A stretch of DNA of 64,000 nt, taken from assembly GCA_947085195.1 (NCBI GenBank), contig CAMTVM010000004.1:1624-65623 (forward strand), given 5' to 3'. Of the stretch, positions 7,271 to 21,229 are shown piece by piece. Numbering within the stretch: position 1 is the first letter of the stretch; the number at the start of each line of letters is the position of its first letter. The DNA is from an uncultured Chloroflexota bacterium (GTDB taxonomy: Bacteria > Chloroflexota > Limnocylindria > Limnocylindrales > CSP1-4). Both the position numbers and the translations under genes were made by a program. The notes below the pieces were generated by a model, which had not been told where the DNA came from, did not search any database, and was given only the letters and a program-made list of their open reading frames with translations.

Positions 7271-8781
7271 CCGAGCCCGCGTCCCCGGTGCCGGCGGCAG
7301 ATTCCGAGGGCGAACCCGCCAGGCCCGCGCTCAGCAACAAGGAGCGGATGACCATCGGCCGGGTATCGATGCCCGAACAGGAAGGCGAGATCCGCGCCCG
7401 GAACTTCGGCGAGGTCAACCTCGGCCTCACCTACGAGCTGGCGCTGCTGGAGGCGGAGCGCTGCATCCAGTGTCCCAAGCCGTTCTGCGTGGATGGCTGC
7501 CCGGTCCGGGTCGACATCCCGCGCTTCATCAAGTTCCTCCGCGAGGGCGACCTGCCCGCCGCCGCGGAGAGCCTCCTCGGCGACAACGCGCTCCCCTGTG
7601 TCACCGGCCGCGTGTGCCCCCAGGAGATCCAGTGCGAGGCCGTGTGTATCCGTACCAAGAAGGGCGACTCGGTCGCCATCGGCTATCTCGAGCGATTCGT
7701 GGCGGACTGGGCCCAGCAGAACCCCGACGCCCTGCCCAAGGTTGAACCCGGCAGCACGGGCAAGCGGATCGGGATCGTCGGTTCCGGCCCGGCCGGCCTC
7801 ACCGCCGCCGGTGAGCTCGCCCGCAAGGGCCACGACGTCACCGTGTTCGAGGCGTTCCACGCTCCGGGCGGCGTCCTGATCTACGGCATCCCGGAGTTCC
7901 GGCTGCCCAAGGACATCGTCCAGGCCGAGGTGGACCGGCTGGTCCGCGAAGGCGTGAAGATCCAGGTCGACGCGATCATCGGCCGCACCTACACCGTGCC
8001 GGAGCTGCGCGAGGAGTACGACGCGCTGTTCCTGGCGGTCGGCGCGGGTCTACCGGTGTTCATGAACGTCCCAGGCGAGAACCTCAAGGGTGTGTACTCG
8101 GCCAACGAGTACCTGACCCGCGTCAACCTCATGGGTGCCTGGAGCGCGGACTCCAGGACCCCCATCCTCCACGGCCAGCGAGTCGTGGTGGTCGGCGGCG
8201 GCAACGTGGCGATGGACTCCGTCCGGACCGCGAAGCGACTGGGTGCTGCCGAGGCGACCATCGTCTACCGCCGCTCCGCAGACGAGCTTCCCGCCCGGAA
8301 GGAAGAGGTCCACCACGCGATCGACGAGGGCGTCGTATTCGACTACCTCACCGCCCCGGTCGAGGTCATCGGCGACGAGAACCGGTGGGTCACGGGCCTG
8401 AAGTGCGTGAAGATGGAGCTGGGTGAGCCGGACGGGAGCGGCCGCCGACGGCCGATCAGGATCGAGGGCTCCGAGTTCACGATCGACTGCGATCTCGTGG
8501 TCGTGGCCATCGGCACCAAGGCCAACCCGCTGCTCACCGGCAGTGCGCCGGAGCTCAGCGTCAACGAGTATGGCTACCTCGTAGCCGACGAGTACGGCAT
8601 GACCAGCATGCCCGGCGTGTTCGCGGGCGGCGACATCGTGCGTGGCGCCGCCACGGTCATCCTCGCCATGGGCGACGGCAAGCGGTCAGCCTTCGCGATC
8701 GACTCCTGGCTCAACGGCGTGTGGCCGCCGGTCGGGGCCGACAAGGAGACGAAGCCGAAGGAGCCCGCCGCCGCCGGCTGA
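7267..8781 (+). CDS. nfnB: NfnB / glutamate synthase small-chain (GltD) family oxidoreductase with ferredoxin-like N-terminus
   Basis: Track ORF. CIQCPKPFCVDGCPV, GIVGSGPAGL and VVVVGGGNVAMD motifs. ATGA overlap with nfnA stop. Confidence 0.85.
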   Translation: MTEPASPVPAADSEGEPARPALSNKERMTIGRVSMPEQEGEIRARNFGEVNLGLTYELALLEAERCIQCPKPFCVDGCPVRVDIPRFIKFLREGDLPAAAESLLGDNALPCVTGRVCPQEIQCEAVCIRTKKGDSVAIGYLERFVADWAQQNPDALPKVEPGSTGKRIGIVGSGPAGLTAAGELARKGHDVTVFEAFHAPGGVLIYGIPEFRLPKDIVQAEVDRLVREGVKIQVDAIIGRTYTVPELREEYDALFLAVGAGLPVFMNVPGENLKGVYSANEYLTRVNLMGAWSADSRTPILHGQRVVVVGGGNVAMDSVRTAKRLGAAEATIVYRRSADELPARKEEVHHAIDEGVVFDYLTAPVEVIGDENRWVTGLKCVKMELGEPDGSGRRRPIRIEGSEFTIDCDLVVVAIGTKANPLLTGSAPELSVNEYGYLVADEYGMTSMPGVFAGGDIVRGAATVILAMGDGKRSAFAIDSWLNGVWPPVGADKETKPKEPAAAG

Positions 8782-8854
8782 CCGGAGATGGAGGCCGCCG
8801 TGCCCGCGGTCGTGGTCCGGGATTCCCTCGCCCGGCGGCCTCGCTTCAGCAGAA

Positions 8855-8870
8855 TGTGCCAATAGGCACT
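8855..8870. promoter_or_regulatory. AT-rich 16-bp dyad TGTGCCAATAGGCACT (CRP/FNR-type half sites TGTGC-N6-GCACT) embedded between CCGGCGG/CCGCCGG arms
   Basis: Seen directly; only AT-rich patch in a very GC-rich intergenic region upstream of aor. Confidence 0.3.
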
Positions 8871-8968
8871 GCATCGAACCGCCGGACACCCGGACCATCG
8901 GTGGAACCGAGTGCGCCCGTGCAGGCGGCACCCGCCCGCGGCCGGTGACACTCGTGCATCGGCGACCC

Positions 8969-9000
8969 GGCGCGCGCGGTCGCGCTTATCCGCGCGCGCC
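8969..9000 (+). other. perfect 11-bp GC stem (GGCGCGCGCGG / CCGCGCGCGCC) with 10-nt loop, 60 nt upstream of aor start; nfnAB terminator or aor leader hairpin
   Basis: Seen directly; no U-tract follows. Confidence 0.35.
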
Positions 9001-9058
9001 GGGCGGCAGACCGGAGCCACGCGAGCAACGAGCGGACGAGAAAGGACACAGGCCGGGC

Positions 9059-10786
9059 ATGGACAAGATCCTGCGCATCGACATGGGCGCCGAGGACGGG
9101 CCCACGACGACGGTCGAGCCGGTCGGTCAGTACGCCGGCCTGGGCGGCCGCGCCATGACATCGCTCGTGGTCAGCAAGGAGGTCGACCCTCTCTGTCATC
9201 CCCTGAGCGCTGCGAACAAGCTCGTGTTCGCTCCGGGCCTGCTCACCGGCTCCGCCGCCTCGACCAGCGGCCGGATCTCGGTCGGCTGCAAGAGCCCGCT
9301 GACGGGCGGCATCAAGGAGGCGAACGCAGGCGGCCAGGCGGGCCAGGCGCTGGCGCGGCTCGGCTACGCCGCGGTCATCGTCGAGGGCGAGCCTGCCGGC
9401 GACGACCTGTGGACCGTCAAGATCGACAAAGGGGGCGTCTCGTTCAAGGTCGACAACAGCCTCAGGATGACCGGTACCTATGCCACGGTCGAGAAGCTCG
9501 TCGGCGATTACGGATCCAAGGTCACCTTCATGGTCATCGGCCAGGCCGGTGAGATGAAGCTCGCCGGTGCCTCCATCGCGGCCTGCGACCGGGAGCTGCG
9601 CCCCACCCGGCACATGGGCCGCGGCGGCGTCGGCGCCGTCATGGGCTCCAAGAAGATCAAGGCATTCATCCTCGACGAAACCGGCACGTCGCTGCGCCAG
9701 CCGCTGCACCCGGAGCGCTTCAAGGCCGCGGCGAAGATCTTCAACGACGGCCTCCGCAGCCACGGCGTCTCGGGGCAGGGTCTGCCCCTGTTCGGCACCA
9801 ACGTCCTGACCAATATCCTCAACGAGGTCGGCGGCTACCCCACCCGCAACTTCAGCTCGGGCCAGTTCGAGGGCGCGACGAAGATCAGCGGCGAGACCCA
9901 GGCCGCGACGATGACCGAGCGCGGCGGCCTGGCGACCCACGCCTGCCACCGTGGCTGCATCATCCAATGCTCCGGCATCTACAACGACGCCACGGGCAAG
10001 TACGTCAGCAAGCAGGCCGAATACGAGACCATCTGGTCGCACGGCGGCCACTGCGGCATCTCCGACCTCGACATCATCCAGCAGCTCGACCGCATGGACG
10101 ACGACTTCGGCCTCGACACGATCGAGACCGGCGTCGCGATCGGCGTCGCGATGGAGGGCGGCCTGCTGCCCTTCGGCGATGGCGAGGGCGCCATCCGCGT
10201 CCTTGCGGAAGTCGGCCAGGGCACCCCGCTCGGCCGGATCATCGGAAGCGGTGCCGCGGCCACGGGCAGGGCATTCGGCGTCTCGCGCGTCCCGGTGGTC
10301 AAGAACCAGGCCCTTCCGGCGTACGATCCGCGTGCCGTCCAGGGCATCGGCGTCACGTATGCGACCACCCCGATGGGCGCCGACCACACGGCCGGCTACG
10401 CGGTGACGGCCAACGTGCTCAAGGTCGGCGGGTTCGTCGACCCGCTCCAGACCGAGGGCCAGGTCGACCTGTCGCGCGCCCTCCAGATCAACACGGCCGT
10501 CATCGACTCCAGCGGGATGTGCCTGTTCGTGGCGTTTCCGGTCATCGACCAGCCGGAGACGTTCACCGCCTTCGTTGAGCTCGTCAACAGCTTCTATGGC
10601 ATCGAGGCCGACGTCACGGCCTTCGGCCAGCAGATCCTGTCGGCCGAGCGTGATTTCAACGCCCGCGCCGGGTTCACGGCGATCGACGATCGCCTGCCGC
10701 GCTTCTTCGAGACGGAGCAACTCCCCCCGCACAACGTCACCTTCAATGTGACGCACGAGGAGCTGGACTCGGTCTTCAACTGGTAG
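9059..10786 (+). CDS. aor: tungsten-containing aldehyde:ferredoxin oxidoreductase (AOR family)
   Basis: C-terminal 575 aa of track ORF 8642..10786. MDKILRIDMGAEDG...AFILD... ; AOR_N and AOR C-terminal pterin-binding features. Start at ATG 9059 with GAAAGGA upstream; earlier ORF part is out-of-context junk. Confidence 0.85.
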   Translation: MDKILRIDMGAEDGPTTTVEPVGQYAGLGGRAMTSLVVSKEVDPLCHPLSAANKLVFAPGLLTGSAASTSGRISVGCKSPLTGGIKEANAGGQAGQALARLGYAAVIVEGEPAGDDLWTVKIDKGGVSFKVDNSLRMTGTYATVEKLVGDYGSKVTFMVIGQAGEMKLAGASIAACDRELRPTRHMGRGGVGAVMGSKKIKAFILDETGTSLRQPLHPERFKAAAKIFNDGLRSHGVSGQGLPLFGTNVLTNILNEVGGYPTRNFSSGQFEGATKISGETQAATMTERGGLATHACHRGCIIQCSGIYNDATGKYVSKQAEYETIWSHGGHCGISDLDIIQQLDRMDDDFGLDTIETGVAIGVAMEGGLLPFGDGEGAIRVLAEVGQGTPLGRIIGSGAAATGRAFGVSRVPVVKNQALPAYDPRAVQGIGVTYATTPMGADHTAGYAVTANVLKVGGFVDPLQTEGQVDLSRALQINTAVIDSSGMCLFVAFPVIDQPETFTAFVELVNSFYGIEADVTAFGQQILSAERDFNARAGFTAIDDRLPRFFETEQLPPHNVTFNVTHEELDSVFNW

Positions 10787-10802: not shown

Positions 10803-12149
10803 ATGGGGCCGCGCCTGGAGCGGCCGATGAGCGTCCCGCTGCCCGTGCCCGACCCGGTGCCGGCTCATCGGCGTGCTCACCCGTCCAAGCTGTTCGTCGA
10901 GGTCACGACGCGTTGCAATCTCCGCTGTGCGATGTGCGTCAAGTACGCGCCGGGGCAGGGCCTGGTGGAAGGCGACATGACCGAGGAGACGTTCGAGCGC
11001 CTCTCGCCCGCCTTTCCGCTCCTCGAGTCGCTGGTGCTCAACGGCATCGGCGAGCCGCTCCTCCACCGGGGCCTCGAGGGGTTCATCGCGCGCGCGAAGG
11101 CGAGCCTGCCGGCCGATGCCTGGGTCGGCTTCCAGACCAACGGCCAGCTCATCGGCGCCCGCCGCGCGGAGGCGCTCGTGGCGGCTGGCGTGGACCGGAT
11201 CGCGATCTCCGCGGACGCCGTGAGCCCCGAGCGGCTCCGCTCGATCCACGGCGGGGCCCGCCTGGCACCCATCGAGGCCGGCGCGGGGCGCCTCCACGAC
11301 AGTGCCGCGGCCCTCGGGCGGCGACTCTCCCTGGGCCTCGAGTTCGTCGCGATGCGCGACAACCTCGACCAGCTCCCGCTGCTCGTGCGCTGGGCGGCCC
11401 GTCATCGGTTCGAGTTCATCATCGTCAGCCACCTCCTGGCCTACGAGCCGTCGATGGCGGAGCACGCCGCATTCAGCCCCACGTCCGACCGGGCGCTGGC
11501 GGTGTACCGGACCTGGCGCTCCCGGGCAGAGGCTGACGGGATCGACCTCGGTCGCTACCTCGCGTCGCGCCACCGCTTCGCGCCGCCGAAGGAGGATGAG
11601 CGCGCGATCCGGCTGGTGAAGGAGATGGTCGCTGACGCCAGGGATCGCGGCATCTCGCTCAGGATCGCGGACCTGCTCCGCTTCGACGAGGCGTGTCTCG
11701 AGGCTACCGAGGCCGCCTTCACCGAGGCCTCGTCGCTCGCCGCCGAGCTGGGCGTCGAGCTCCGGTTGCCCTCGACCGTACCCACCCAGGTCCGGCGCTG
11801 CGAGTTCGTGGAGGAGGGGTCCGCGTTCGTGTCCTGGGACGGCGGCCTCCACCCGTGCTACTTCCTGTGGCACCGGTTCGACTGCTACCTCGGGGGGATC
11901 GCGAAGACCGTCCGGCCGCGGTCGTTCGGGAATGTCGACGACGCCGGGATCCTCGAGATCTGGAACGGGCAGCCGTGGCGGACGTTCCGGGGCGACGTCA
12001 CCCGATATGACTTTCCGTTCTGCTACGACTGCAACCTCGCGATGTGCGACTACGTCCAGGACGGCGACTTCGAGCAGGACTGTCACCTGGTCCAGGTGCC
12101 GTGTGCGGCGTGCCTGTGGTGCACGGGGCCGTTCCAGTGCCTGCGCTGA
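10803..12149 (+). CDS. radical SAM protein with C-terminal Cys-rich SPASM/twitch-like domain
   Basis: Track ORF. N-terminal CNLRCAMC (CxxxCxxC) and 10 Cys in last 120 aa incl. CYDCNLAMC ... CAAC. 17 nt downstream of aor. Confidence 0.75.
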   Translation: MGPRLERPMSVPLPVPDPVPAHRRAHPSKLFVEVTTRCNLRCAMCVKYAPGQGLVEGDMTEETFERLSPAFPLLESLVLNGIGEPLLHRGLEGFIARAKASLPADAWVGFQTNGQLIGARRAEALVAAGVDRIAISADAVSPERLRSIHGGARLAPIEAGAGRLHDSAAALGRRLSLGLEFVAMRDNLDQLPLLVRWAARHRFEFIIVSHLLAYEPSMAEHAAFSPTSDRALAVYRTWRSRAEADGIDLGRYLASRHRFAPPKEDERAIRLVKEMVADARDRGISLRIADLLRFDEACLEATEAAFTEASSLAAELGVELRLPSTVPTQVRRCEFVEEGSAFVSWDGGLHPCYFLWHRFDCYLGGIAKTVRPRSFGNVDDAGILEIWNGQPWRTFRGDVTRYDFPFCYDCNLAMCDYVQDGDFEQDCHLVQVPCAACLWCTGPFQCLR

Positions 12150-12233: not shown

Positions 12234-13406
12234 TCAGGCCACCGCGCCCGCGAGAGAGCGCAGTGCCGACAGCGTCTGGTCGATGTCGTCGGTGGTCGTG
12301 AACGCGCCCGGCGACAGGCGCACCGTGCCTCGCGGCCAGGTTCCGACCGTGCGGTGCGCAAGGGGCGCGCACTGGAGTCCCGCCCGGACAGCGATCCGGA
12401 ACGAGCTGTCGAGCGCCGCAGCGAGGTCGACTGGCTCCCAGCCCACGAGCGTGATCGAGGTCGTCGCGACCTGGCGTGCGGCATCGCCCGTGCCGTGGAC
12501 CGCCAGGCCGGGGATCGTGCGCAGGCCGTCGAGGAGCCGCGCGGTCAGCACCTGCTCGTGGGCACGGATCGCGGCGATGCCTCGCTCCGCGAGGTATGCC
12601 AGGGCGGCGCCCAGCCCGGCGATGCCGACCGTGTTGAGCGTGCCGACCTCGAGTGCCTCGGGCAGCTCCTCGGGCTGGCGGTCCTCCTCGGATCGGGTCC
12701 CGGTCCCACCCTGGCGGAGGGGACGCAGCCGGATGCCCGGTCCGACATACAGGCCGCCGGTTCCCGTCGGCCCCAGCAGGCCCTTGTGGCCCGGGAGCGC
12801 GACCAGGTCGAGTCCCAGCGCGGCGACGTCGAGGGGCAGGACACCCGCAGTCTGCGCGGCGTCGACGAGCACCAGCGCTCCATGGTCGTGCGCGAGCCGG
12901 GCCGCCTCGGCGATCGGGAGGATCGTGCCGGTGACGTTGCTCGCGTGGGTCAGGGCCACGAGACGGGCCGGCCCGGCACACAGCGCGCGCTCGAGGTCGC
13001 CGGGGTCGAGCGTGCCGTCCGGCGCGCACGGGACCCGCGTGACCAGGACGCCGGCGTCGCCCAGCGCGACCAGGGGCCTTGCCACGGCGTTGTGCTCGAC
13101 GCTGGTCGTGATGACCCTGTCCCCTGCCGCGAGCAGGCCCCACAGCGCCAGGTTCAGGGCGTCCGTCGCGTTGGCGGTGAAGACGACCCGAGACGGGTCG
13201 GGCGCCCCGAGGAGTGTCGCGAGACCGCGGCGAGTGGCCGTCACGACCGCCTGCGCCCCGAGTGCCAGTGCGTGGCCGGACCGGCCGGGGTTGCCCGCCG
13301 TGGTCGCCAGGAAGCCGCCCATCGCCTCGATCACGCCCGGGGCCTTGGGGAACGAGGTGGCGGCATTGTCGAGGTAGATCACGCGCCCGTCGTCAGGTTC
13401 CGACAT
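12234..13406 (-). CDS. cysteine desulfurase / class V aminotransferase (IscS/NifS/CsdA-like)
   Basis: Track ORF 12234..13469(-). IYLDNAATSFP near N-terminus; PLP-lysine context ALPGHKGLLGPTGTGG. Start at ATG 13406 (MSEPDDGRV), overlaps moeB stop by 14 nt; alternative GTG 13382. Confidence 0.8.
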   Translation of the reverse strand: MSEPDDGRVIYLDNAATSFPKAPGVIEAMGGFLATTAGNPGRSGHALALGAQAVVTATRRGLATLLGAPDPSRVVFTANATDALNLALWGLLAAGDRVITTSVEHNAVARPLVALGDAGVLVTRVPCAPDGTLDPGDLERALCAGPARLVALTHASNVTGTILPIAEAARLAHDHGALVLVDAAQTAGVLPLDVAALGLDLVALPGHKGLLGPTGTGGLYVGPGIRLRPLRQGGTGTRSEEDRQPEELPEALEVGTLNTVGIAGLGAALAYLAERGIAAIRAHEQVLTARLLDGLRTIPGLAVHGTGDAARQVATTSITLVGWEPVDLAAALDSSFRIAVRAGLQCAPLAHRTVGTWPRGTVRLSPGAFTTTDDIDQTLSALRSLAGAVA

Positions 13407-14433
13407 AGCGCGCGTACAGCGAGCGGGCGACCGCGACGTCGTCGGTGCCCTTGATGATCGCGCGGCCATCGGCGAACACGGTCATCTCGTGACCGTCGAC
13501 CACCGACCGGAGCAGGTAGTCGCTCGAGGTCACGGTCCCGGTGCCTGCGAGCTTGAGGGCCAGGACCCGGAGGTCGAGCCGAACGGCCCGACCCGGGCTC
13601 ACCTGGACGGCGTCGCGACCGCACAGCGTCGCCGTCCGGCTCGTGACCCTGGCCTCGAGATACTCGAAGCGGCGCTCGCCGCAGCACGGGCAGTCCGGTC
13701 GCCGGGGTACGCCCTCGGTGTGGAGGTGGTCGTTCGTCCACACGTCGAACGCGGTAACGCCGCGGCTGAGGTGCTCGCGGTCGCCGACGAGGAGCTTCAC
13801 TGTCTCGGTCCACTGCATCGCGGCGACGGTCACGACGGTCGACGCAAGCACGCCAGCGGTTTCGCAGGTCTCCATCGTGCCCGCCGGCTGGGGCGTCGGA
13901 AACAGGCACCGGAAGCACGCCGTGTCGCCGGGCAGAACCGTCATCGACATCCCGGTCGAGCCGACCGCGCCACCGTAGACCCAGGGAATGCCTGCTTTCA
14001 CGCAGGCGTCGTTGAGCAGGTAGCGCGTCTCGAGGTTGTCCGTGCCGTCGACCACGACGTCGGCCCGGGCGACCAGCGCCTCCACGTTGGCGGGGGTGAC
14101 ATCCGCGACGAGCGCCTCGACATCGACTCCGGCGTTGATCCGGCCGACGGCTTCGGCCGCCGCGACCGCCTTGGGCGACCCGGCCGCAGCGTCGGCCTCG
14201 TCGTACAACAGCTGGCGCTGGAGGTTGCTGAGTTCCACGAAGTCGCGGTCGACGACCACCAGGTGGCCCACCCCGGAACGTGCCAGCAGGTCAATCACCG
14301 AACAACCCAGGGCGCCACACCCGACCACGAGCACACGGCCCGCCGCGAGTCGCGCCTGTCCCTCGGTGCCGATGCCCCAGAACCGGGCCTGGCGCGAGTA
14401 GCGGTCCCCGGTCGCGGGGGTGCTGGGTGCCAC
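13393..14433 (-). CDS. moeB: ThiF/MoeB-family E1-like adenylyltransferase with CPCC zinc motif and 85-aa C-terminal extension of unknown fold
   Basis: Track ORF 13393..14628(-). DRYSRQARFWGIG... VLVVGCGALGC (Rossmann GxGxxG), DPDCPCCG. GTG start at 14433 inferred from family N-terminus. Confidence 0.75.
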   Translation of the reverse strand: MAPSTPATGDRYSRQARFWGIGTEGQARLAAGRVLVVGCGALGCSVIDLLARSGVGHLVVVDRDFVELSNLQRQLLYDEADAAAGSPKAVAAAEAVGRINAGVDVEALVADVTPANVEALVARADVVVDGTDNLETRYLLNDACVKAGIPWVYGGAVGSTGMSMTVLPGDTACFRCLFPTPQPAGTMETCETAGVLASTVVTVAAMQWTETVKLLVGDREHLSRGVTAFDVWTNDHLHTEGVPRRPDCPCCGERRFEYLEARVTSRTATLCGRDAVQVSPGRAVRLDLRVLALKLAGTGTVTSSDYLLRSVVDGHEMTVFADGRAIIKGTDDVAVARSLYARYVGT

Positions 14434-14708: not shown

Positions 14709-14939
14709 TCACCCACCGCCGATCACCGGGAAGACCGCCAGGACGCTGCCGTCAGCGAGTCGGTCGTCAAACTCCACGTTGCGGCCGTTGACCATCATCA
14801 CCCCGACCTCGGGGCGCGGGATCTCGAGCTCGTCGACGATCTCGCCGACCGTCGGCGATTCCGGGTAGGCGCGCGTCTCGATGGCAAACCGGCCGCGCTG
14901 GAAGCTGGCGAACAGCTTGATCGTCAGCTGCACCGACAC
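14709..14939 (-). CDS. moaD: MoaD/ThiS-family sulfur-carrier protein ending in Gly-Gly
   Basis: In track ORF 14709..15056(-). VSVQLTIKLFASFQRGR...VLAVFPVIGGG; diglycine C-terminus, ~76 aa from GTG 14939. Confidence 0.7.
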   Translation of the reverse strand: MSVQLTIKLFASFQRGRFAIETRAYPESPTVGEIVDELEIPRPEVGVMMVNGRNVEFDDRLADGSVLAVFPVIGGG

Positions 14940-14967: not shown

Positions 14968-15504
14968 TCAGGCGGCGACACGTAGCAGGATCTCACGATC
15001 CAGGGCGATGCGCTCCAGGTCCGGATCCGGGCCCAGGATCCTGGCCGCCTCGTCATGGGCCAGCACGATCCCGCGGCGCAGGATCGAGGGGCCGACGCCC
15101 GGGATGATGAGGTTGAACAGCTTCACTCGGATGGTGGGGGCCGACTCTTCGTCGCGGCCACCCCCGTGGCCCTCGTGCCAGCTGACCTGGGCGCGCATCG
15201 CCGAGTAGTAGCTGGACCGGCGAAGCGTGGCCCCGACGAGCCCCGGCATCGCCGCCGAGAGCGTCAGGGTGGACCCGGGATGGAGCATGGCGCGGTCCAG
15301 GTCATCGACGACCATCGAGTCCACGAACACGGTCGCGATCACGTGGCGGACATAGTCGGGCTCGATCGCCAGGTCAACCGAGAGGAAGTCTGCGACCGAG
15401 CGCGGACCGGCGAGCGAGACGACGACGCCGCGCTGGAACAGCGCGCCCAGATCGCTCCAGCGCACGCGGTCGGCGGAGATGGTGAGGGTGACGGGATCGG
15501 TCAT
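14968..15504 (-). CDS. hypothetical protein (178 aa) between SHOCT-membrane gene and moaD
   Basis: C-terminal part of track ORF 14968..15888(-). MTDPVTLTISADRVRWSDLGALFQRGVVV... I recognise no family; upstream ORF part is Arg/Pro junk so start set at ATG 15504. Confidence 0.45.
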   Translation of the reverse strand: MTDPVTLTISADRVRWSDLGALFQRGVVVSLAGPRSVADFLSVDLAIEPDYVRHVIATVFVDSMVVDDLDRAMLHPGSTLTLSAAMPGLVGATLRRSSYYSAMRAQVSWHEGHGGGRDEESAPTIRVKLFNLIIPGVGPSILRRGIVLAHDEAARILGPDPDLERIALDREILLRVAA

Positions 15505-15748
15505 CGCCCGTGCATCATTCGCGAGGCCCACGCTCCGGGTCACGGGCCGGATGGACCGTCGCGTCGGGCAGGTGGCGCCGGGACGGCCGGACCGCCGTGC
15601 GGTGCGCGGACGCACCCGGGGCCGGCTCGACCGGCGGACGGCTGCCGGTCTCAACCGCCGCTGAGCACCAGGAACAGCCGTGAGCCCGCGATCACGCCCA
15701 GGATGATGGCAGCCACCATGATCACGGTCACGAGCGGGCGGGGAACCG

Positions 15749-16399
15749 TCACGAGCGCGCCTCCAGCTCGGCGATGATCGATGCCTTGGCGGTCTCGAAA
15801 TCCTCCGGTGTCGGCAGGCCACGGTCCCGCATGTCGGCCAGGCGCTCCAGCCGGTCGAGCAGTGCCTGCCCGCGCTGCGGCGGGCCACCCGGCGGCCGGG
15901 CCGTGGCCTGAGCCGGCGTGGCTCCAGCCGTGAAGCCGGCGCGCATCGCGACGGCCACGATTACGATCGGCGTGAGAGCCATCAGCTCGAACAGGATCCC
16001 CGGGATCAACCAGCCCCGGACGATCTCGTCCGCCTCGGGCGGCGGGTTGATGATCCCGTGATCGAGGAAGTTCCAGCCGAGGGCCCCGAACAGGCCTGAC
16101 CACCCGACGAGGACCGCGGCGATGGCCCACCGAGCGCCCACGCGGCTGCCGCAGGCCATCGCGATCCCGCCGAACAGGACCACGCCGAAGATGCCGAGCA
16201 TCATCGCCGGAGCCGTGCCGTCCGGACACGACTGCGCCGAGACGAAAGGCCCACCGTCCACACAGAATCCGCCGACGTCCATGACCGCCCGCATCGCGTG
16301 GAACACCAGGGTGACGCACATGGTCAGCCCGCCGAGTCCGATCGCCAATCCCAGGACCGCGCCCAATCCCGGGTCCGGCCGCCGTGCCCCGAAGCCCAT
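15749..16399 (-). CDS. membrane protein with C-terminal SHOCT domain
   Basis: Track ORF 15749..16441(-). Several hydrophobic segments; C-terminal LLDRLERLADMRDRGLPTPEDFETAKASIIAEL is a typical SHOCT helix pair. Confidence 0.55.
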   Translation of the reverse strand: MGFGARRPDPGLGAVLGLAIGLGGLTMCVTLVFHAMRAVMDVGGFCVDGGPFVSAQSCPDGTAPAMMLGIFGVVLFGGIAMACGSRVGARWAIAAVLVGWSGLFGALGWNFLDHGIINPPPEADEIVRGWLIPGILFELMALTPIVIVAVAMRAGFTAGATPAQATARPPGGPPQRGQALLDRLERLADMRDRGLPTPEDFETAKASIIAELEARS

Positions 16400-16450
16400 G
16401 GCCACCCTCCTGCCCTCGCCGGCCGGGTGGCCGGATGTCACAGGCGCAGG

Positions 16451-17862
16451 CTACGGCCGGACGGCCTCCATGCGATCGAGGATCAGGCGCTTGACGCCCT
16501 CGAGCGGCACCCGTTCCTGGGTCATCGAGTCGCGGTCGCGGACCGTGACCGCGCCGTCGTCGAGCGAGTCCACGTCAACCGTGACGCACCACGGCGTGCC
16601 GATCTCGTCCTGGCGCCGGTAGAGCTTGCCGATGGCGGCCGTGTCGTCGTAGACGGCCATCATGTCGCGCTTGAGGTCGCCCAGGAGACGGTGGCATATG
16701 TCCACGATCTCGGGGCGCTTCTTGAGCAGCGGCAGGACGGCCACCTTGTACGGTGCGATGTCCGGGTGCAACCCCAGGACCACGCGCGTCTCGCCGCGGA
16801 CCTCCTCCTCCCGATAGGCGTCGATGAGGAACGTGAACGCCGCACGGTCCGCGCCCGCCGCGGTCTCCACGACCCACGGGATGAAGTGCTCGCCGGACGC
16901 CTGGTCGAAGTACTCGAGGTTCTCGCCGGACGCCTTCGCGTGGTTGCCCAGGTCGAAGTCGCCGCGGTTGTGGATGCCTTCGAGCTCCTTCCAGCCGAAC
17001 GGGAAGCGGTACTCGACGTCGATCGCCTTCTTCGCGTAGTGCGCCAGCTCGTCGGGGGCGTGCTCTCGGAACCGGAGGCGGGCCGGGGTCACGCCGTAGG
17101 CCTCGTACCACGCCTTCCGCCTGGGCAGCCACTCCTCGAAGGCCTGCGAGGCGGCCTCACCGGGGCGCACGAAGTACTGCATCTCCATCTGCTCGAACTC
17201 CCGCATCCGGAACACGAAGTTGCCGGGCGAGATCTCGTTGCGGAACGACTTGCCGATCTGGGCGATGCCGAACGGGATCTTCCTGCGCGAGCTCTGCTGG
17301 ACGTTCTTGAAGTTGACGTAGCTGCCCTGCGCGGTTTCCGGGCGGAAGTAGACGATCGAGCCGTCGTCCTCGACGGGTCCCATGTGGGACGTGAACATGA
17401 GGTTGAACCGGCGCGGCGCCGACAGCGGCCCCGCGTCATTGGGGCAGACCAGGCCGAGGCGCCCGACGATCGTGTCGTCACGCAGGTCGGTCGCCGAGAG
17501 ATCCTCAGCGCCCGGCAGCTCGTCCAGGCGGAACCGGCGGCGGCAGGTCGCGCACTCCACGAGCGGGTCGCTGAACGAGCCGACGTGCCCCGACGTGATC
17601 CAGACCTGGGGGTGCATCAGGATCCCGGCGTCCAGGCCCACGATGTCGTTGCGGTCCTGGACCATCGCCCGCCACCAGGCGCGCTTGACGTTGTTCTTGA
17701 GCTCCACGCCCAGGGGTCCGTAGTCCCAGACGGCGTTGATTCCGCCGTAGATCTCCGATGACGGGAAGATGAAGCCGCGGCGCTTGGACAGGCTGACGAT
17801 GGTCTCGAGGTTCGCGACGGCGGGCGCGACGTCGCCCGGATCGAGGGATTCGGCGGTCACGG
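16451..17862 (-). CDS. glyQS: glycine--tRNA ligase (dimeric class II GlyRS)
   Basis: C-terminal 470 aa of track ORF 16451..18658(-). [11 protein letters not shown]...FRNEISPG...GADRAAFT match GlyRS. GTG start at 17862 with GGAGA upstream; earlier part is antisense junk. Confidence 0.9.
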
Positions 17863-18027
17863 GGTGGAGTCTCCGCTGATACGCGACCGTGGCATGGCCG
17901 CGCGGGACCCCGATCCTACCAGAGCCGCTGACGGCCCCCCAGGGAAGCGAGTCCGCGTGGAGTCGGCGACGCGCAGGGTCCGGCGGCCGCTGCCGCGCTG
18001 ACGTCGGGATCGCGCGCACCCTCCCGC

Positions 18028-18825
18028 TCATCGGCCGGTCTGGAACCGGTAGCCGAGCCCGTACTCGGTCGTGATGAACGTGCGACCCGGCGTCGCCGCG
18101 GCCAGCTTGGTCCGCAGGTTGCGCATGGTCACCCTCAGGAGCTGGATCTCGTCGCCGTATGTCGGCCCCCAGACCATGCGCAGCAGCTCGCCGTGCGTCA
18201 TGAGCTCGTCGGCGCGGCGGGCGAGGGACACGAGAAGCCGGAACTCGGTCGGGGTCAGGTGGACCTCCTGGGCGGAGCCCATCACCCGGTGGCCGCGCAG
18301 CTCGATCCGCAGCCCGGGATGCTCGATGACGTCGTCCGGGCGCGCCTCGTGCAGGTGGACCCGGCGGAACGCGGCCTGGATCCGTGCGACCAGCTCCGGG
18401 AAGCTCACGGGCTTCGTGAGGTAGTCGTCTGCGCCGGCGACGAGGCCGTGCACCACGTCCGACTCGGCGTCGAGCGCGGTGACCATGAGGATCGGTACGG
18501 TGCTCACGCTGCGGATCCACTCCGCGACCTGCCATCCGTCGAGGCCCGGGAGGTTGAGGTCGAGGAGCACGAGGTCCGGCTCCTCCTCCGCGAAGCGGCG
18601 CATGACCTCGTGGGCATCGCCCGCCAACGCGGTGCGCCAGCCGTGGCGATTGACCCACAGCTCGACGAGCTCCCGGAACTCGAGCTCGTCCTCGACGACG
18701 AGGACGAGCTCGCCGTTTCCCGGCACCGGGCGGGACGGGACGGGCGGCACGACGATCCGCCGGCCGTCCGGATGCCGCGTGCGTCCGGAATCGCCGTCGC
18801 CGCGCGATTCGCCGGACGCCGTCAC
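18028..18825 (-). CDS. OmpR/PhoB-family response regulator
   Basis: C-terminal 266 aa of track ORF 18028..19659(-). [14 protein letters not shown]...[12 protein letters not shown]...LTKP and winged-helix LTPTEFRLL...GYRF. GTGA overlap with kinase stop. Confidence 0.85.
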
Positions 18826-20492
18826 GACGCCTCCCCGAGCGCCTCGGGCGGAGCGGCCGGCAGGCTGAACGACACCGCGCTCCCGCCGCCCTCCGCCTCC
18901 ACCCAGATCCGCCCCCCGTGTGCCTCGATGAGGCGCCTGCAGACGTATAGCCCGAGGCCCGTCCCGGGCGTCCTGCCGTCCCGCGCGTTCCGGCCGCGGT
19001 AGAAGCGGTCGAACACGTGCGGCCGCTCCTCGGGCGGCACGCCCGGTCCGGTGTCGTGCACGGTGACGACGACGGCGCCCCGTTCGCCCCGCGCCGTCAC
19101 CGTGATCGGGCCGCCGTCGCCGTACTTGCGCGCGTTGTCCACGAGGTTCGCAAGGACGTGGCCGATCCGGAGCGGGTCGATCGCGACCGACGGCAGGTCC
19201 GGCGGGATGGCGACCCGGACCGGGCGCGCGCCGGGCGACTCCGCGAGGTCGTCGGCCAGCCGGGCGACGACCGACGGCAGGTGCACGACGGAGCGCTGGA
19301 GTAACGGGCCGGTGCTCTCGAAGCGAGTGAGCTCGAGCAGCTCGTCGACGAGCTCGGCCAGGCGCCCGGCCGCGTGGCCAATCCGCTCCACGGAGCGGCG
19401 CTGCGCATCCGCGTCCAGGTCGAGCGCGAGCAGGCTGTCCACGTAGCCGGAGATGAGCGCTAGCGGCGTCCGGAGCTCGTGGGAGACGGCGGCGAGGAAG
19501 CTCGCCCGGAGCTCCTCGACGGCGATCTCGGCGCGCGTGTCGCGCAGCACGACGACGGCGCCCCGCTCGGCGCCCGGCATGGCCGAGTACGACGCGGCGA
19601 CGGGGATCGCCGTGCCGTCGCGGCCGACCACGACGTGCTCGCACGCGATCGGCGCCCACGGGTGCTCCATCGCCTCCTCGAACCGGCAGCGCGGACCGCA
19701 GCGCAGCGAGCCACGGGCGGCGGTGCCCGGTCGCCCGTCCTCCCCTGGTTCGCCGGCGGTCGCGCCAGGCACGTCGTCAGGCGCGCAGCCGAGCACCTCG
19801 CGGCACGACCGGCTGGAGGGCACGACGGCCGTGCCGCCGAGCAGCGACATGGCGGCCCGGTTCACGCGCACGACCCGGCATCCCTCGTCCACCGCCACGA
19901 TCCCGTCGTTCGCGCCGTCGAGGATCGCCGCGAGCAGTGCCTGCTCCCCGGCCAGCGCGTGGCGGAGCTGGGCCGCCTGGAAGGCGATCGCCAGTTCGTG
20001 GCGTACCAGCGCGAGGAGCCGGACGCCCTCGGCCGGCAGGTCGTCGCCCGGCGGTGGCTGGAACGCGAGGTAGCCGACAAGCCGGCTGTCGAGGCTCCGC
20101 TCCCCGAGCCCGCGGCGCTCGTCGAGCGCGACGCCCCGCCACCCCGCGGCGCGGGTCCACGCGGCGGCGGTGTCCGCGCCGGCGAGCTCCTCCGGGAGCT
20201 GCGGGACGGCCTCGCCGGCCGGTTCACCGCCCGCGGGATCGTCTCCGACGACCGCGACGAGCCGCATCGAGCGCTCGCCGGTGGTGGACAGCCACAGGGC
20301 GCCCGCGGCCGCATCGGTCACCCGCACGAGCTCGGTCACCACCGAGGTGGCAAGCGCCCGCAGGTCCCCGCCGAGCGCGAGCAGCTGGCTCAGCTGGTAC
20401 TGCGCGAACACGGTATCCGCCTCGCGCTGCGCGTCGGCGAGGGGCGTGCGCCGGTCGCGGTCAGGACCGGCGACGCGATCTGCGGCCGTCAT
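18822..20492 (-). CDS. cytoplasmic sensor histidine kinase with GAF/PAS-like N-terminal region
   Basis: Track ORF 18822..20765(-). HisKA H-box [10 protein letters not shown], HATPase motifs [19 protein letters not shown]; no TM segments. Start at MTAADRV (ATG 20492) overlapping dhaL stop. Confidence 0.8.
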
Positions 20493-21229
20493 GCGCGCCG
20501 CCGCGCTGCGGGCTCGAGCATCGCCCGGATGAGAAGGAAGCACGAGGTCGCTCCGGGGTCCTGGTGCCCGCGGGAGCGCTCGCCCAGGCGCAGCGCGAGG
20601 CCCCGTCGCGCGATCATCGGCGTCGTCGCCCGCATGCCCGCGCGCGCCGCCGCCGCGGCGCGCCGGAGCGCATACACGGCGTCGCGGCCATCCGCCACGG
20701 CAGAGGCATAGGCGTCCGCGGCCGGCCGCAGCGCGTCGAAGATCGTCTTGTCGCCGAGCCGGCACCGCCCGCGGCGGGCGACCCCATGCGCGGCGGCATC
20801 GAGCGCCCGGGCGATCCCGGCGAGCGTGACCACCGGCCCTTCCGGGATGGCGAGGCCCGCCTCGGTGAACGCGGTCCCGTACAGCGAGCCGCCCGCGCCC
20901 CCGACGTTGGCCACGACGAGCGAGCCCAGCCGCCGCAGGAGCTCCCCGACATCGTCAGCGGCCGCGTCCGGGCGCGCCGAACCGTCGGGCGCCGCAAGCG
21001 CACGCACGGCGTGCCCGAACCCGACGGTCATGTTCTCGCCGTGGTCGCCGTCCCCGAGCGCGGCGTCCAGCCGGTCCAGCAGCCGCCGGTGGCGGACCAG
21101 CAACCGCTCCGCGCGCGCGACGAAGGCCAGCACCTCGACCGCGGTGACGGCGCGCTCGGCGATGTCGTCGGTTACCCGCGGGCCGACGTCCTGCGCACGG
21201 TCGCGGTCCACGTCGATGCGCCTGCTCAT
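20489..21229 (-). CDS. dhaL: DhaL-domain protein (ADP-binding subunit of dihydroxyacetone kinase), paralog 1, first gene of dhaL-HK-RR operon
   Basis: C-terminal 247 aa of track ORF 20489..21889(-). LDAALGDGDHGENM ... [10 protein letters not shown]-like [16 protein letters not shown]. Confidence 0.8.
   Translation of the reverse strand: MSRRIDVDRDRAQDVGPRVTDDIAERAVTAVEVLAFVARAERLLVRHRRLLDRLDAALGDGDHGENMTVGFGHAVRALAAPDGSARPDAAADDVGELLRRLGSLVVANVGGAGGSLYGTAFTEAGLAIPEGPVVTLAGIARALDAAAHGVARRGRCRLGDKTIFDALRPAADAYASAVADGRDAVYALRRAAAAARAGMRATTPMIARRGLALRLGERSRGHQDPGATSCFLLIRAMLEPAARRRA

Follow-up and report, generated by a model that had tools for sequence, protein, structure and literature searches.

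A conserved gene adjoining tungsten aldehyde:ferredoxin oxidoreductase, with a predicted tandem beta-grasp fold, as a candidate cofactor maturation factor

We analysed a stretch of 64,000 nucleotides from an uncultured Chloroflexota bacterium (assembly GCA_947085195.1, contig CAMTVM010000004.1, positions 1,624 to 65,623; hereafter the window) and, within it, a gene of 178 codons plus stop, called X here, which lies on the minus strand at 14968-15504 (ATG at 15504, stop codon TGA at 14968-14970). X is a real member of a large, cross-phylum family that has neither a name nor an annotation. Its conserved neighbourhood, compared over 85 loci, places it in a tungsten-cofactor gene cluster linked to aldehyde:ferredoxin oxidoreductase (AOR), and the linkage to AOR is the strongest of its gene links. 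According to profile alignments and structure models, X uses the known MoaD/ThiS fold in an unusual way: it would be a tandem, non-activatable protein in which the tail has become a conserved internal loop. Because this invariant loop is flanked by invariant polar residues and the adjacency to AOR dominates, we favour, tentatively, the view that X is an accessory protein dedicated to the maturation of single-subunit tungsten enzymes of the AOR type, as a factor for the hand-over or insertion of the cofactor that would be private to AOR.

AOR-family enzymes, which can reduce carboxylic acids that have not been activated, are of interest as biocatalysts, and the finishing and insertion of their bis-pterin tungsten cofactor are poorly understood. 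The recombinant production of AOR published so far depends on hosts that have the tungsten cofactor of their own (PMC9295118). A conserved gene without a name that directly follows AOR in hundreds of anaerobic bacteria is a natural candidate for a missing maturation factor. If X does capture the pterin and insert the finished cofactor, the AOR family would have its first known dedicated cofactor chaperone, in which the tail of a ubiquitin fold is turned into an internal ligand-binding loop. X would also represent a new architectural type of prokaryotic ubiquitin-like protein, a tandem MoaD fold that cannot be conjugated. The family merits at least a database model and a name.

The X gene and its family

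The guanine-cytosine (GC) content of the 178-amino-acid part of X was 0.715, 0.475 and 0.894 at codon positions 1, 2 and 3, respectively, which is the same signature as that of the ThiS-like gene (0.69, 0.42 and 0.91), the ThiF gene (0.71, 0.51 and 0.89) and the AOR gene (0.64, 0.47 and 0.93) of the window, the GC content of which is 72%. The mechanical open reading frame (ORF) of X extends upstream to a GTG at 15888 (306 amino acids), which would make it overlap the preceding gene. The upstream extension had a GC content of 0.695, 0.805 and 0.719 at the three codon positions, and it was considered non-coding because this pattern is unlike that of X and its neighbours. A length of 178 amino acids is that of most close homologs of X, and the N-terminus MT(D/G)PV is likewise common among them; the X protein itself starts with MTDPVTLTIS and ends with LLRVAA. 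The coding GC pattern and the presence of homologs of the same length with the same start led us to conclude that the gene is real and that its coordinates are right.

A word-indexed search of a collection clustered at 90% gave 576 relatives of X, and an exhaustive HMMER scan of 1.84 billion representatives of 50%-identity clusters gave 1046 relatives at E<=1e-3, of which 803 reached E<=1e-10; nearly all of the 1046 were 170-220 amino acids long. The number of matches was 1848 when a second family member was used as the query. When one genome for each GTDB species was scanned with a sequence pattern, at least 468 species proved to encode a relative. The taxa bearing X include Chloroflexota, Geobacter/Desulfuromonadales, Syntrophaceae, Syntrophorhabdus, Desulfobacterales and Anaeromyxobacter, as well as Leptospirales/Treponemataceae/Spirochaetaceae, Nitrospirota, Sterolibacterium and Dongiaceae; no archaeal protein was present among the relatives found. 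The nearest relatives, at 83-92% identity, are encoded by Chloroflexota metagenome-assembled genomes labelled Chloroflexia or Candidatus Limnocylindrales.

Wherever a source names these proteins, they are always called "hypothetical protein". With the threshold relaxed to E<=10, Pfam and NCBIfam searches of X and of 40 varied relatives returned nothing consistent, and searches of PDB sequences with the full X profile and with the profile of each half returned no match. No publication or database model covering X was found in the literature and model databases, and none of the proteins of a plasmid collection searched for annotated homologs matched. The gene was not found in split or fused form: database proteins of unusual length, short or long, are contig-end fragments or start-site miscalls. 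The first-pass annotation, made from the letters of the window, had described X as a real-looking coding sequence that matched no family; both statements held, the first through the 178-codon ORF, a third-position GC content (0.89) like that of the neighbours and the 1046 relatives among cluster representatives, and the second through the empty Pfam, NCBIfam and PDB sequence searches.

Conserved neighbourhood and comparison with known clusters

The neighbourhood comparison covered 84 fetched loci and the window, which were searched with the proteins of the window and with cofactor genes from related loci; ThiS-like genes were also sought with a hidden Markov model of their family over all reading frames of the loci. 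The canonical order, on one strand, is AOR - X - ThiS/MoaD-like - ThiF/MoeB, and it was found in at least six phyla, namely Chloroflexota, Desulfobacterota (Geobacter, Desulfuromonadales, Syntrophia-type and Desulfobacterales), Myxococcota, Spirochaetota, Nitrospirota and Pseudomonadota. In 56 of the 71 loci that have at least 2 kb of upstream sequence, AOR directly preceded X on its strand, and X was usually located 50-250 bp downstream of AOR. Of the 78 loci with sufficient sequence, 52 had a ThiS-like gene that ends no more than 900 bp downstream of X (44 on the same strand and 8 on the opposite strand), and 30 of 70 had a ThiF gene within 1.5 kb downstream. When at least 5 kb was available on each side of X, AOR, the ThiS-like gene and ThiF were present within the locus in 34, 32 and 22 of 37 loci, respectively; over all 85 loci, these numbers were 75, 59 and 41.

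The ThiS-like orthologs from these 59 loci are 74-76 amino acids long and 56 of them end in GG, while the ThiF partners of X belong to two subtypes that are about 35% identical and that have or do not have a C-terminal extension. A maturase of the radical S-adenosylmethionine (radical-SAM)/SPASM type was found near X in 19/85 loci. The other recurring companions were MoeA, MoaA, MoaC, MoaE, an ATP-binding cassette (ABC) transporter of the molybdate/tungstate type, a sigma-54 activator and a cysteine desulfurase. Pairs of AOR and X exist with no ThiF gene, and in two loci also with no ThiS-like gene, within 10 kb; a locus with X and ThiS or ThiF but without AOR was not found among the 85.

The first-pass annotation had placed X immediately upstream of moaD and had proposed it as a new component of the sulfur-carrier system. 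The position was confirmed, a 76-amino-acid ThiS/MoaD-like gene being located 28 nt past the stop codon of X, and the co-occurrence with MoaD-like genes that it had suggested checking was positive (the 52 of 78 loci mentioned above). No homology to an unrelated housekeeping family, the finding that it had named as speaking against its proposal, was found. Because of this co-occurrence and the lack of housekeeping homology, X is still a legitimate candidate component of the module. The proposal is thus partly supported: the linkage to the MoaD-like gene is conserved, but the tightest partner of X is AOR, which the first-pass annotation had not mentioned, and a "tungsten-cofactor/AOR maturation module" is a better frame than the sulfur-carrier system alone.

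A mobile AOR-MoaD-MoeB neighbourhood, which may also include MoaE, MoeA and other genes, was described by Iyer, Burroughs and Aravind in 2006, who proposed that this cluster serves to produce the molybdopterin of the tungsten cofactor in particular; the cluster components that they give do not include X (PMC1779556). Like their AOR-linked MoaD set, X sits beside AOR and the ThiF/MoeB E1 enzyme.

Such a neighbourhood could also mean, in line with the idea of the first-pass annotation, that X acts within the sulfur-transfer step, as a partner of the ThiS/MoaD-like thiocarboxylate that presents it to ThiF or to the desulfurase, or, in the manner of MoaE, as an acceptor that holds the tail of the carrier in place over cyclic pyranopterin monophosphate. 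We regard this alternative as rather unlikely. It agrees with the 28-nt gap between X and the ThiS-like gene of the window and with the frequency of ThiS-like genes (52/78 within 900 bp) and of ThiF (30/70) after X; a fold homologous to that of the carrier could allow X to pair with the carrier or to compete with it for surfaces, and the invariant Arg residues offer possible binding sites for the phosphate of the precursor. However, X accompanies two ThiF subtypes as unlike as 35% identity, it is paired with AOR in loci that have no ThiF nearby and sometimes no ThiS, and it has no conserved Cys for a persulfide relay, no MoaE match in Pfam and no invariant Lys, while two loci, L003 and L020, have a true MoaE in the very clusters that contain X.

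These two loci also bear on the suggestion of the first-pass annotation that moaE or an E2- or JAB-like partner might be expected at the position of X. MoaE is the expected partner of MoaD and, like X in the acceptor role just described, would have to take the tail of the carrier together with a phosphorylated pterin precursor; Lys residues of MoaE are essential. Unlike MoaE (PF02391), X has a different predicted architecture and is encoded beside a genuine MoaE, in L003 in a cluster AOR-ThiS-MoaC-MoaE that is convergent with X and in L020 (Anaeromyxobacter oryzae) in the order AOR-X-ThiS-ThiF-MoaC-MoaE-rSAM (rSAM, radical-SAM gene). Since MoaE coexists with it, X is not expected to be the large subunit of molybdopterin synthase, and its identification as a MoaE replacement was rejected on this ground, on the lack of a match to PF02391 and on the lack of an invariant Lys. 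X could neither relay a persulfide nor act as an E2, because it has no conserved Cys, and it would not be a JAB peptidase, because it has no His motif; the roles of persulfide carrier and of E2-like or JAB(MPN) partner, for which Pfam likewise gave no match, were also rejected.

The tight adjacency to the AOR structural gene could instead reflect a small, stoichiometric subunit or a regulator of AOR, one that stabilises the enzyme, docks a partner, or binds or senses tungstate, and the invariant Ser, Arg and Asn residues could bind an oxyanion such as tungstate. This explanation is unlikely, in our estimation. X lacks the Fe-S and flavin motifs of the known additional subunits AorA and AorC, and X of the window heads an operon of ThiS, ThiF and desulfurase genes on the strand opposite to AOR. 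In addition, the characterised single-subunit AORs of the archaeal branch are described as homodimers in the literature searched (PMC6365974).

The aorD and aorE genes of Aromatoleum aromaticum "resemble MoaD" and are putative maturation factors of the tungsten cofactor (PMC6365974, PMC9295118); with aorDE added to the expression plasmid, recombinant AOR had a specific activity of 16 U/mg, compared with 4.5 U/mg without them (PMC9295118). The Aromatoleum aor operon that we compared was taken from a genome with a 98%-identical AorB, the AorB sequence having been rebuilt from a PDB alignment. The aorD and aorE genes (9292-9863 of locus L086) resemble X and its neighbour in being small accessory genes of a MoaD-like kind that come after a tungsten AOR gene, and both of their products have a Gly-Gly end. 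AorD (83 amino acids) is a Ub-Mut7C/ThiS protein, as is the 76-amino-acid protein of the window, and AorE (107 amino acids, ending in QRGGG) had no Pfam match and gave a probability of 0.1% against the X profile with hhalign. X was therefore rejected as a counterpart of either, AorD being of the family of its neighbour and AorE having no similarity to it, and no X gene was found within 6 kb of the Aromatoleum aor operon. AOR clusters thus have a conserved carrier and a second small protein that differs, which is AorE for three-subunit enzymes and X for single-subunit ones. YdhW of E. coli, the product of an unknown gene after the AOR-like ydhV, was also tried and rejected, being unrelated to X.

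A second recurring cluster member without annotation was noticed, a protein of 123-156 amino acids that has no Pfam match and is apparently embedded in the membrane. It is encoded at 13323-13694 of L003, 1017-1403 of L004 and 4340-4810 of L001, and also in L010 (the contig of L001), L015, L018 and L020. Its gene adjoins MoeA in five of these seven clusters; L015 and L018 had no MoeA match.

Predicted fold and proposed role of X

Conservation was read from an alignment of 40 family members at 30-48% identity. The conserved core motif of the family is L-S-A-A-M-P-G-L-V-G-A-T-L-R-R-G-G-x-Y-A-x-M-R, which is followed by a strand V-K-L-F-N. The invariant residues are G26, D67, S83, P87, G88, G91, A92, R95, R104, N131 and G145, and the near-invariant ones are L41, I56, T58, F60, G77, L82, A85, L89, F130 and E136. 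Cys and His residues were not conserved in the family alignments, not even at the near-invariant level, and no Lys was invariant among the 40 members. Three parts can be distinguished on the minus strand: an N-terminal unit predicted by hhalign and Foldseek to be a ThiS/MoaD-like beta-grasp (residues ~3-88, 15241-15498), the most conserved stretch of the alignment, S-A-A-M-P-G-L-V-G-A-T-L-R-R-x-x-x-Y-x-x-M-R (residues 83-107, 15184-15258), much of which is predicted to be flexible, and a C-terminal unit starting with the V-K-L-F-N strand (residues 122-178, 14971-15141). The Gly/Arg-rich loop after the N-domain reads SAAMPGLVGATLRR...Y..MR.

The sequence preceding the motif is carrier-like (SV-DFL---LGI-P-YV---I-TVFVDG-VVDD-----L--GS-L-LSAAMPG). 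Comparison with a profile built from the 74-76-amino-acid proteins encoded beside X showed that residues 29-82 of X align with residues 21-67 of the AOR-linked ThiS-like proteins, with an hhalign probability of 58-77% (E 2e-5 to 1e-4) that falls to 37% when a smaller alignment (the A3 subset) is used. When this alignment is extended, P87-G88 of X falls on the terminal Gly-Gly of the carrier. The ThiS/MoaD models PF02597, PF14451 and TIGR01682/01687 matched neither X nor the 40 relatives at E<=10, whereas the neighbouring 76-amino-acid protein matches the ThiS-type Pfam models.

The AlphaFold2 (AF2) model of X, made with an alignment of 30 sequences, had a mean predicted local distance difference test (pLDDT) score of 81.8 and a predicted template modelling (pTM) score of 0.76, with a pLDDT below 50 at residues 89-97 and 101-120, that is, in much of the conserved motif and in the variable stretch after it. 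The isolated N-domain was modelled with a pLDDT of 80, and its best-ranked matches in a Foldseek search of the PDB were mostly beta-grasp proteins. These included a TGS domain (3hvz, probability 0.97), ThiS of Geobacter metallireducens (3cwi, 0.96) and MoaD in molybdopterin synthase (2q5w_D, 0.92), followed by human MOCS2A (5mpo), SAMP1 (4hro/3po0), SAMP2 (5lda), ThiS (1tyg_G) and MoaD (1fm0_D). The template modelling (TM) scores were 0.5-0.6 and the E values were weak, 0.13-2, as expected for a domain of 73 residues. The N-domain is thus predicted, with modest statistics, to have the beta-grasp (ThiS/MoaD) fold of PF02597 and of structures such as 1fm0_D, 2q5w_D, 3cwi and 1vjk.

The profile of the N-domain was also aligned with that of the C-domain of the long-form relatives, which gave an hhalign probability of 85% and an E value of 6e-6 over 62 columns. 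The pattern of the long-form C-domain is V-K-L-F-N-l-l--E-l-G-P--f-L--R-G-I ... v-D-G--v ... l-V, and the strand VKLFN of X matches the first strand of the carrier, VKLFA, in the hhalign alignment. The C-terminal unit of X is shortened, and the "v-D-G-x-x-v" hairpin of the longer relatives is absent from it. These profiles indicate that X is a tandem beta-grasp protein, the C-terminal unit of which is a degenerate second copy of the N-terminal unit. Unlike MoaD and ThiS, the X chain runs about 90-130 residues past the Gly-Gly position, with a tandem duplication and an invariant internal loop.

The internal P87-G88 (or G91-A92) is followed by about 90 further residues in 40/40 aligned members, so that there is no free C-terminal Gly-Gly, and X would for this reason be unable to carry sulfur itself. 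We infer from the sequences that X is neither adenylated nor thiocarboxylated and is in this sense a "pseudo-MoaD". It would be otherwise if X were the pro-form of a ubiquitin-like protein, cut after G88 or G91 to release a MoaD-like carrier or modifier of about 88-91 amino acids that ThiF activates. MoaD-MoaE fusions and CysO/QbsE-type proteins are ubiquitin-like precursors that get cleaved, the P87-G88 and G91 residues of X align with the Gly-Gly end of the carrier, and the Aromatoleum AOR operons encode two small proteins with such an end, AorD and AorE. Nevertheless, processing of X is very unlikely: the residues past the putative cut (TLRR...Y..MR and KLFN) are equally invariant, which would not be needed in a disposable linker, the motif is P-G or G-A rather than G-G, split versions of the gene were not found, and no JAB/MPN or other protease occurred among the conserved neighbours surveyed, a survey that included no direct search for one.

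We return to the favoured view, that of an AOR-dedicated factor for cofactor hand-over or insertion. The loop and the invariant polar residues of both units look like those of a binding pocket for ligands with a phosphate group, or of an interface made orderly by binding. MoaD tails are flexible until they are inserted in MoeB or MoaE, and the conserved loop of X is likewise predicted by the model to be disordered in isolation. The beta-grasp surface and the tail-like loop of X may dock on a protein that normally receives the MoaD tail, that is, molybdopterin synthase/MoaE, the E1 enzyme or apo-AOR. Residues Q24, D67, S83, R95, R104, N131 and E136 and the Gly-rich loop would form the ligand pocket, and the putative ligand would be molybdopterin or tungsten-molybdopterin. 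X would then collect the oxygen-labile pterin at the sulfur-transfer step and pass it on to apo-AOR. The more specific proposal that X, as a non-activatable double-MoaD-fold protein, captures (tungsten-)molybdopterin and assembles the bis-pterin tungsten cofactor or inserts it into apo-AOR is possible but doubtful. A different role, the delivery of a terminal sulfido ligand to tungsten, was set aside as unlikely, since it is hard to reconcile with a published AOR cofactor model that has two oxo ligands (PMC10413684).

X would in this way be a private cofactor carrier or insertion chaperone, as NarJ/TorD or XdhC are for other molybdenum and tungsten enzyme families. The private chaperones of these families, NarJ/TorD/DmsD, XdhC and FdhD, have all-alpha, Rossmann-like or FdhD folds. 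Like them, X is encoded beside the enzyme that it would serve, and it would hold and insert the finished cofactor; unlike them, it has no sequence or fold relation to any of the three groups. A dedicated chaperone for AOR-family enzymes was not found in the literature searched. Like X, the N-terminal module of AOR has two tandem beta-grasp units, which bind the metallopterin (Burroughs et al. 2007, PMC1949818).

Several observations weigh against this role for X. Its attribution comes from gene context and conservation, from which the binding of a ligand and of partners is deduced, and the evidence for the fold is coherent and statistically weak (Foldseek E values of 0.13-2 and hhalign probabilities of 37-85%). 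The full-length model of X gave nothing above noise in a Foldseek search of the PDB (E>0.8), the hhalign comparison of X with the pterin-binding N-terminal domain of AOR gave a probability below 1%, with no detectable relation, and X had no Pfam match to the known molybdenum cofactor chaperone families. The AorABC-type operon of Aromatoleum matures its enzyme without X. Archaeal AOR clusters also appear to lack X; in Thermococcus kodakarensis, aor is followed only by a gene for a ubiquitin-like protein of the MoaD family and a radical-SAM gene (PMC11323500). At least four X homologs, those of L038, L061, L067 and L084, are found outside the context of AOR, and no AOR was seen in L035 and L042, where X is at the end of the contig. 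The probability that is left over after the four readings considered here belongs to something else.

Other contexts of the family and genes around X in the window

The homologs without AOR showed two arrangements. In L061 (9254-10537, with 10 kb on each side) and L067 (1296-2679), the X homolog is directly downstream of a TetR-family gene, and the homolog of L038 is likewise next to a TetR gene; these homologs are regarded as stand-alone copies. In L084 (8586-10567, Desulfoferrobacter suflitae), the X homolog (9776-10567) overlaps the stop codon of LarC (PF01969, E 7e-149) by 4 nt and is thus translationally coupled to it, and no AOR, ThiS or ThiF gene was found within 10 kb of this pair. LarC is the nickel-insertion protein in the pathway of the nickel-pincer cofactor. 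The X family may have a second context besides AOR, which is possible because the LarC pathway makes another thiocarboxylate-containing cofactor.

The ThiS/MoaD-like sulfur carrier of the window (14709-14939, minus strand, 76 amino acids; Pfam Ub-Mut7C 1e-10 and ThiS 1.8e-10) starts with a GTG after a GGAGG Shine-Dalgarno sequence, and the protein ends in FPVIGGG; among PDB entries, MoaD of P. furiosus (1vjk) matches it best. It is followed by the ThiF/MoeB-type E1 adenylyltransferase gene (13393-14433, minus strand; Pfam ThiF 7e-76, NCBIfam PRK12475 2e-108), whose probable start, according to the third-position GC pattern, is the GTG at 14433, the maximal ORF reaching 14628. This ThiF has a C-terminal extension of about 85 amino acids (...VFADGRAIIKGTDDVAVARSLYARYVG) that is common to L001-L003, L006, L008, L011 and L021. 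The extension is absent in L005 and L007, two of the closest relatives, both of which also lack the cysteine desulfurase. In the window, the class-V aminotransferase/cysteine desulfurase is encoded at 12234-13406 on the minus strand (Pfam Aminotran_5 2e-84; TIGR01977 424 bits for a cutoff of 377), with a probable start at the ATG at 13406, which the mechanical ORF overcalls.

The AOR and radical-SAM genes of the window are on the plus strand and convergent with the X-ThiS-ThiF-desulfurase operon. The radical-SAM/SPASM protein (10803-12149) is a "putative metalloenzyme maturase" (TIGR04311, 549.5 bits for a cutoff of 400), a family related to the maturase of tungsten-cofactor oxidoreductases, TIGR04317. 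The AOR-family tungsten aldehyde:ferredoxin oxidoreductase (9059-10786, 575 amino acids) matched AFOR_N (5e-55) and AFOR_C (8e-68) of Pfam and the PDB entries 9mqx (5e-82), 1aor (3e-73) and 8c0z (5e-72). Its mechanical ORF (8642-10786) has 714 amino acids, AFOR_N begins at the Met at 9059 (MDKILRID...), and the 139-amino-acid Arg/Pro-rich N-terminal extension is probably untranslated. Homologs of MoaE, MoeA, MoaA, MoaC and the tungstate transporter were not found in the 64-kb window.

Upstream of X, the first-pass annotation had named a SHOCT membrane gene. A membrane gene is indeed located at 15749-16441, but its SHOCT match (18.7 bits) is below the Pfam cutoff of 27 bits and it is about 245 nt away from X. 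The gap between the two genes (15505-15748) has a non-coding composition and is presumably the regulatory region of the X operon. An Rfam scan of the window, which included the molybdenum cofactor riboswitch, matched no family, and a promoter and terminator scan gave no match, which is uninformative at 72% GC. Farther upstream, the long minus-strand ORFs at 16451-20765, which have no apparent link to X, were assigned by eye alone: a putative response regulator and sensor histidine kinase pair at 18028-20765, and a glycyl-tRNA synthetase-like gene at 16451-18658, the start of which is overcalled.

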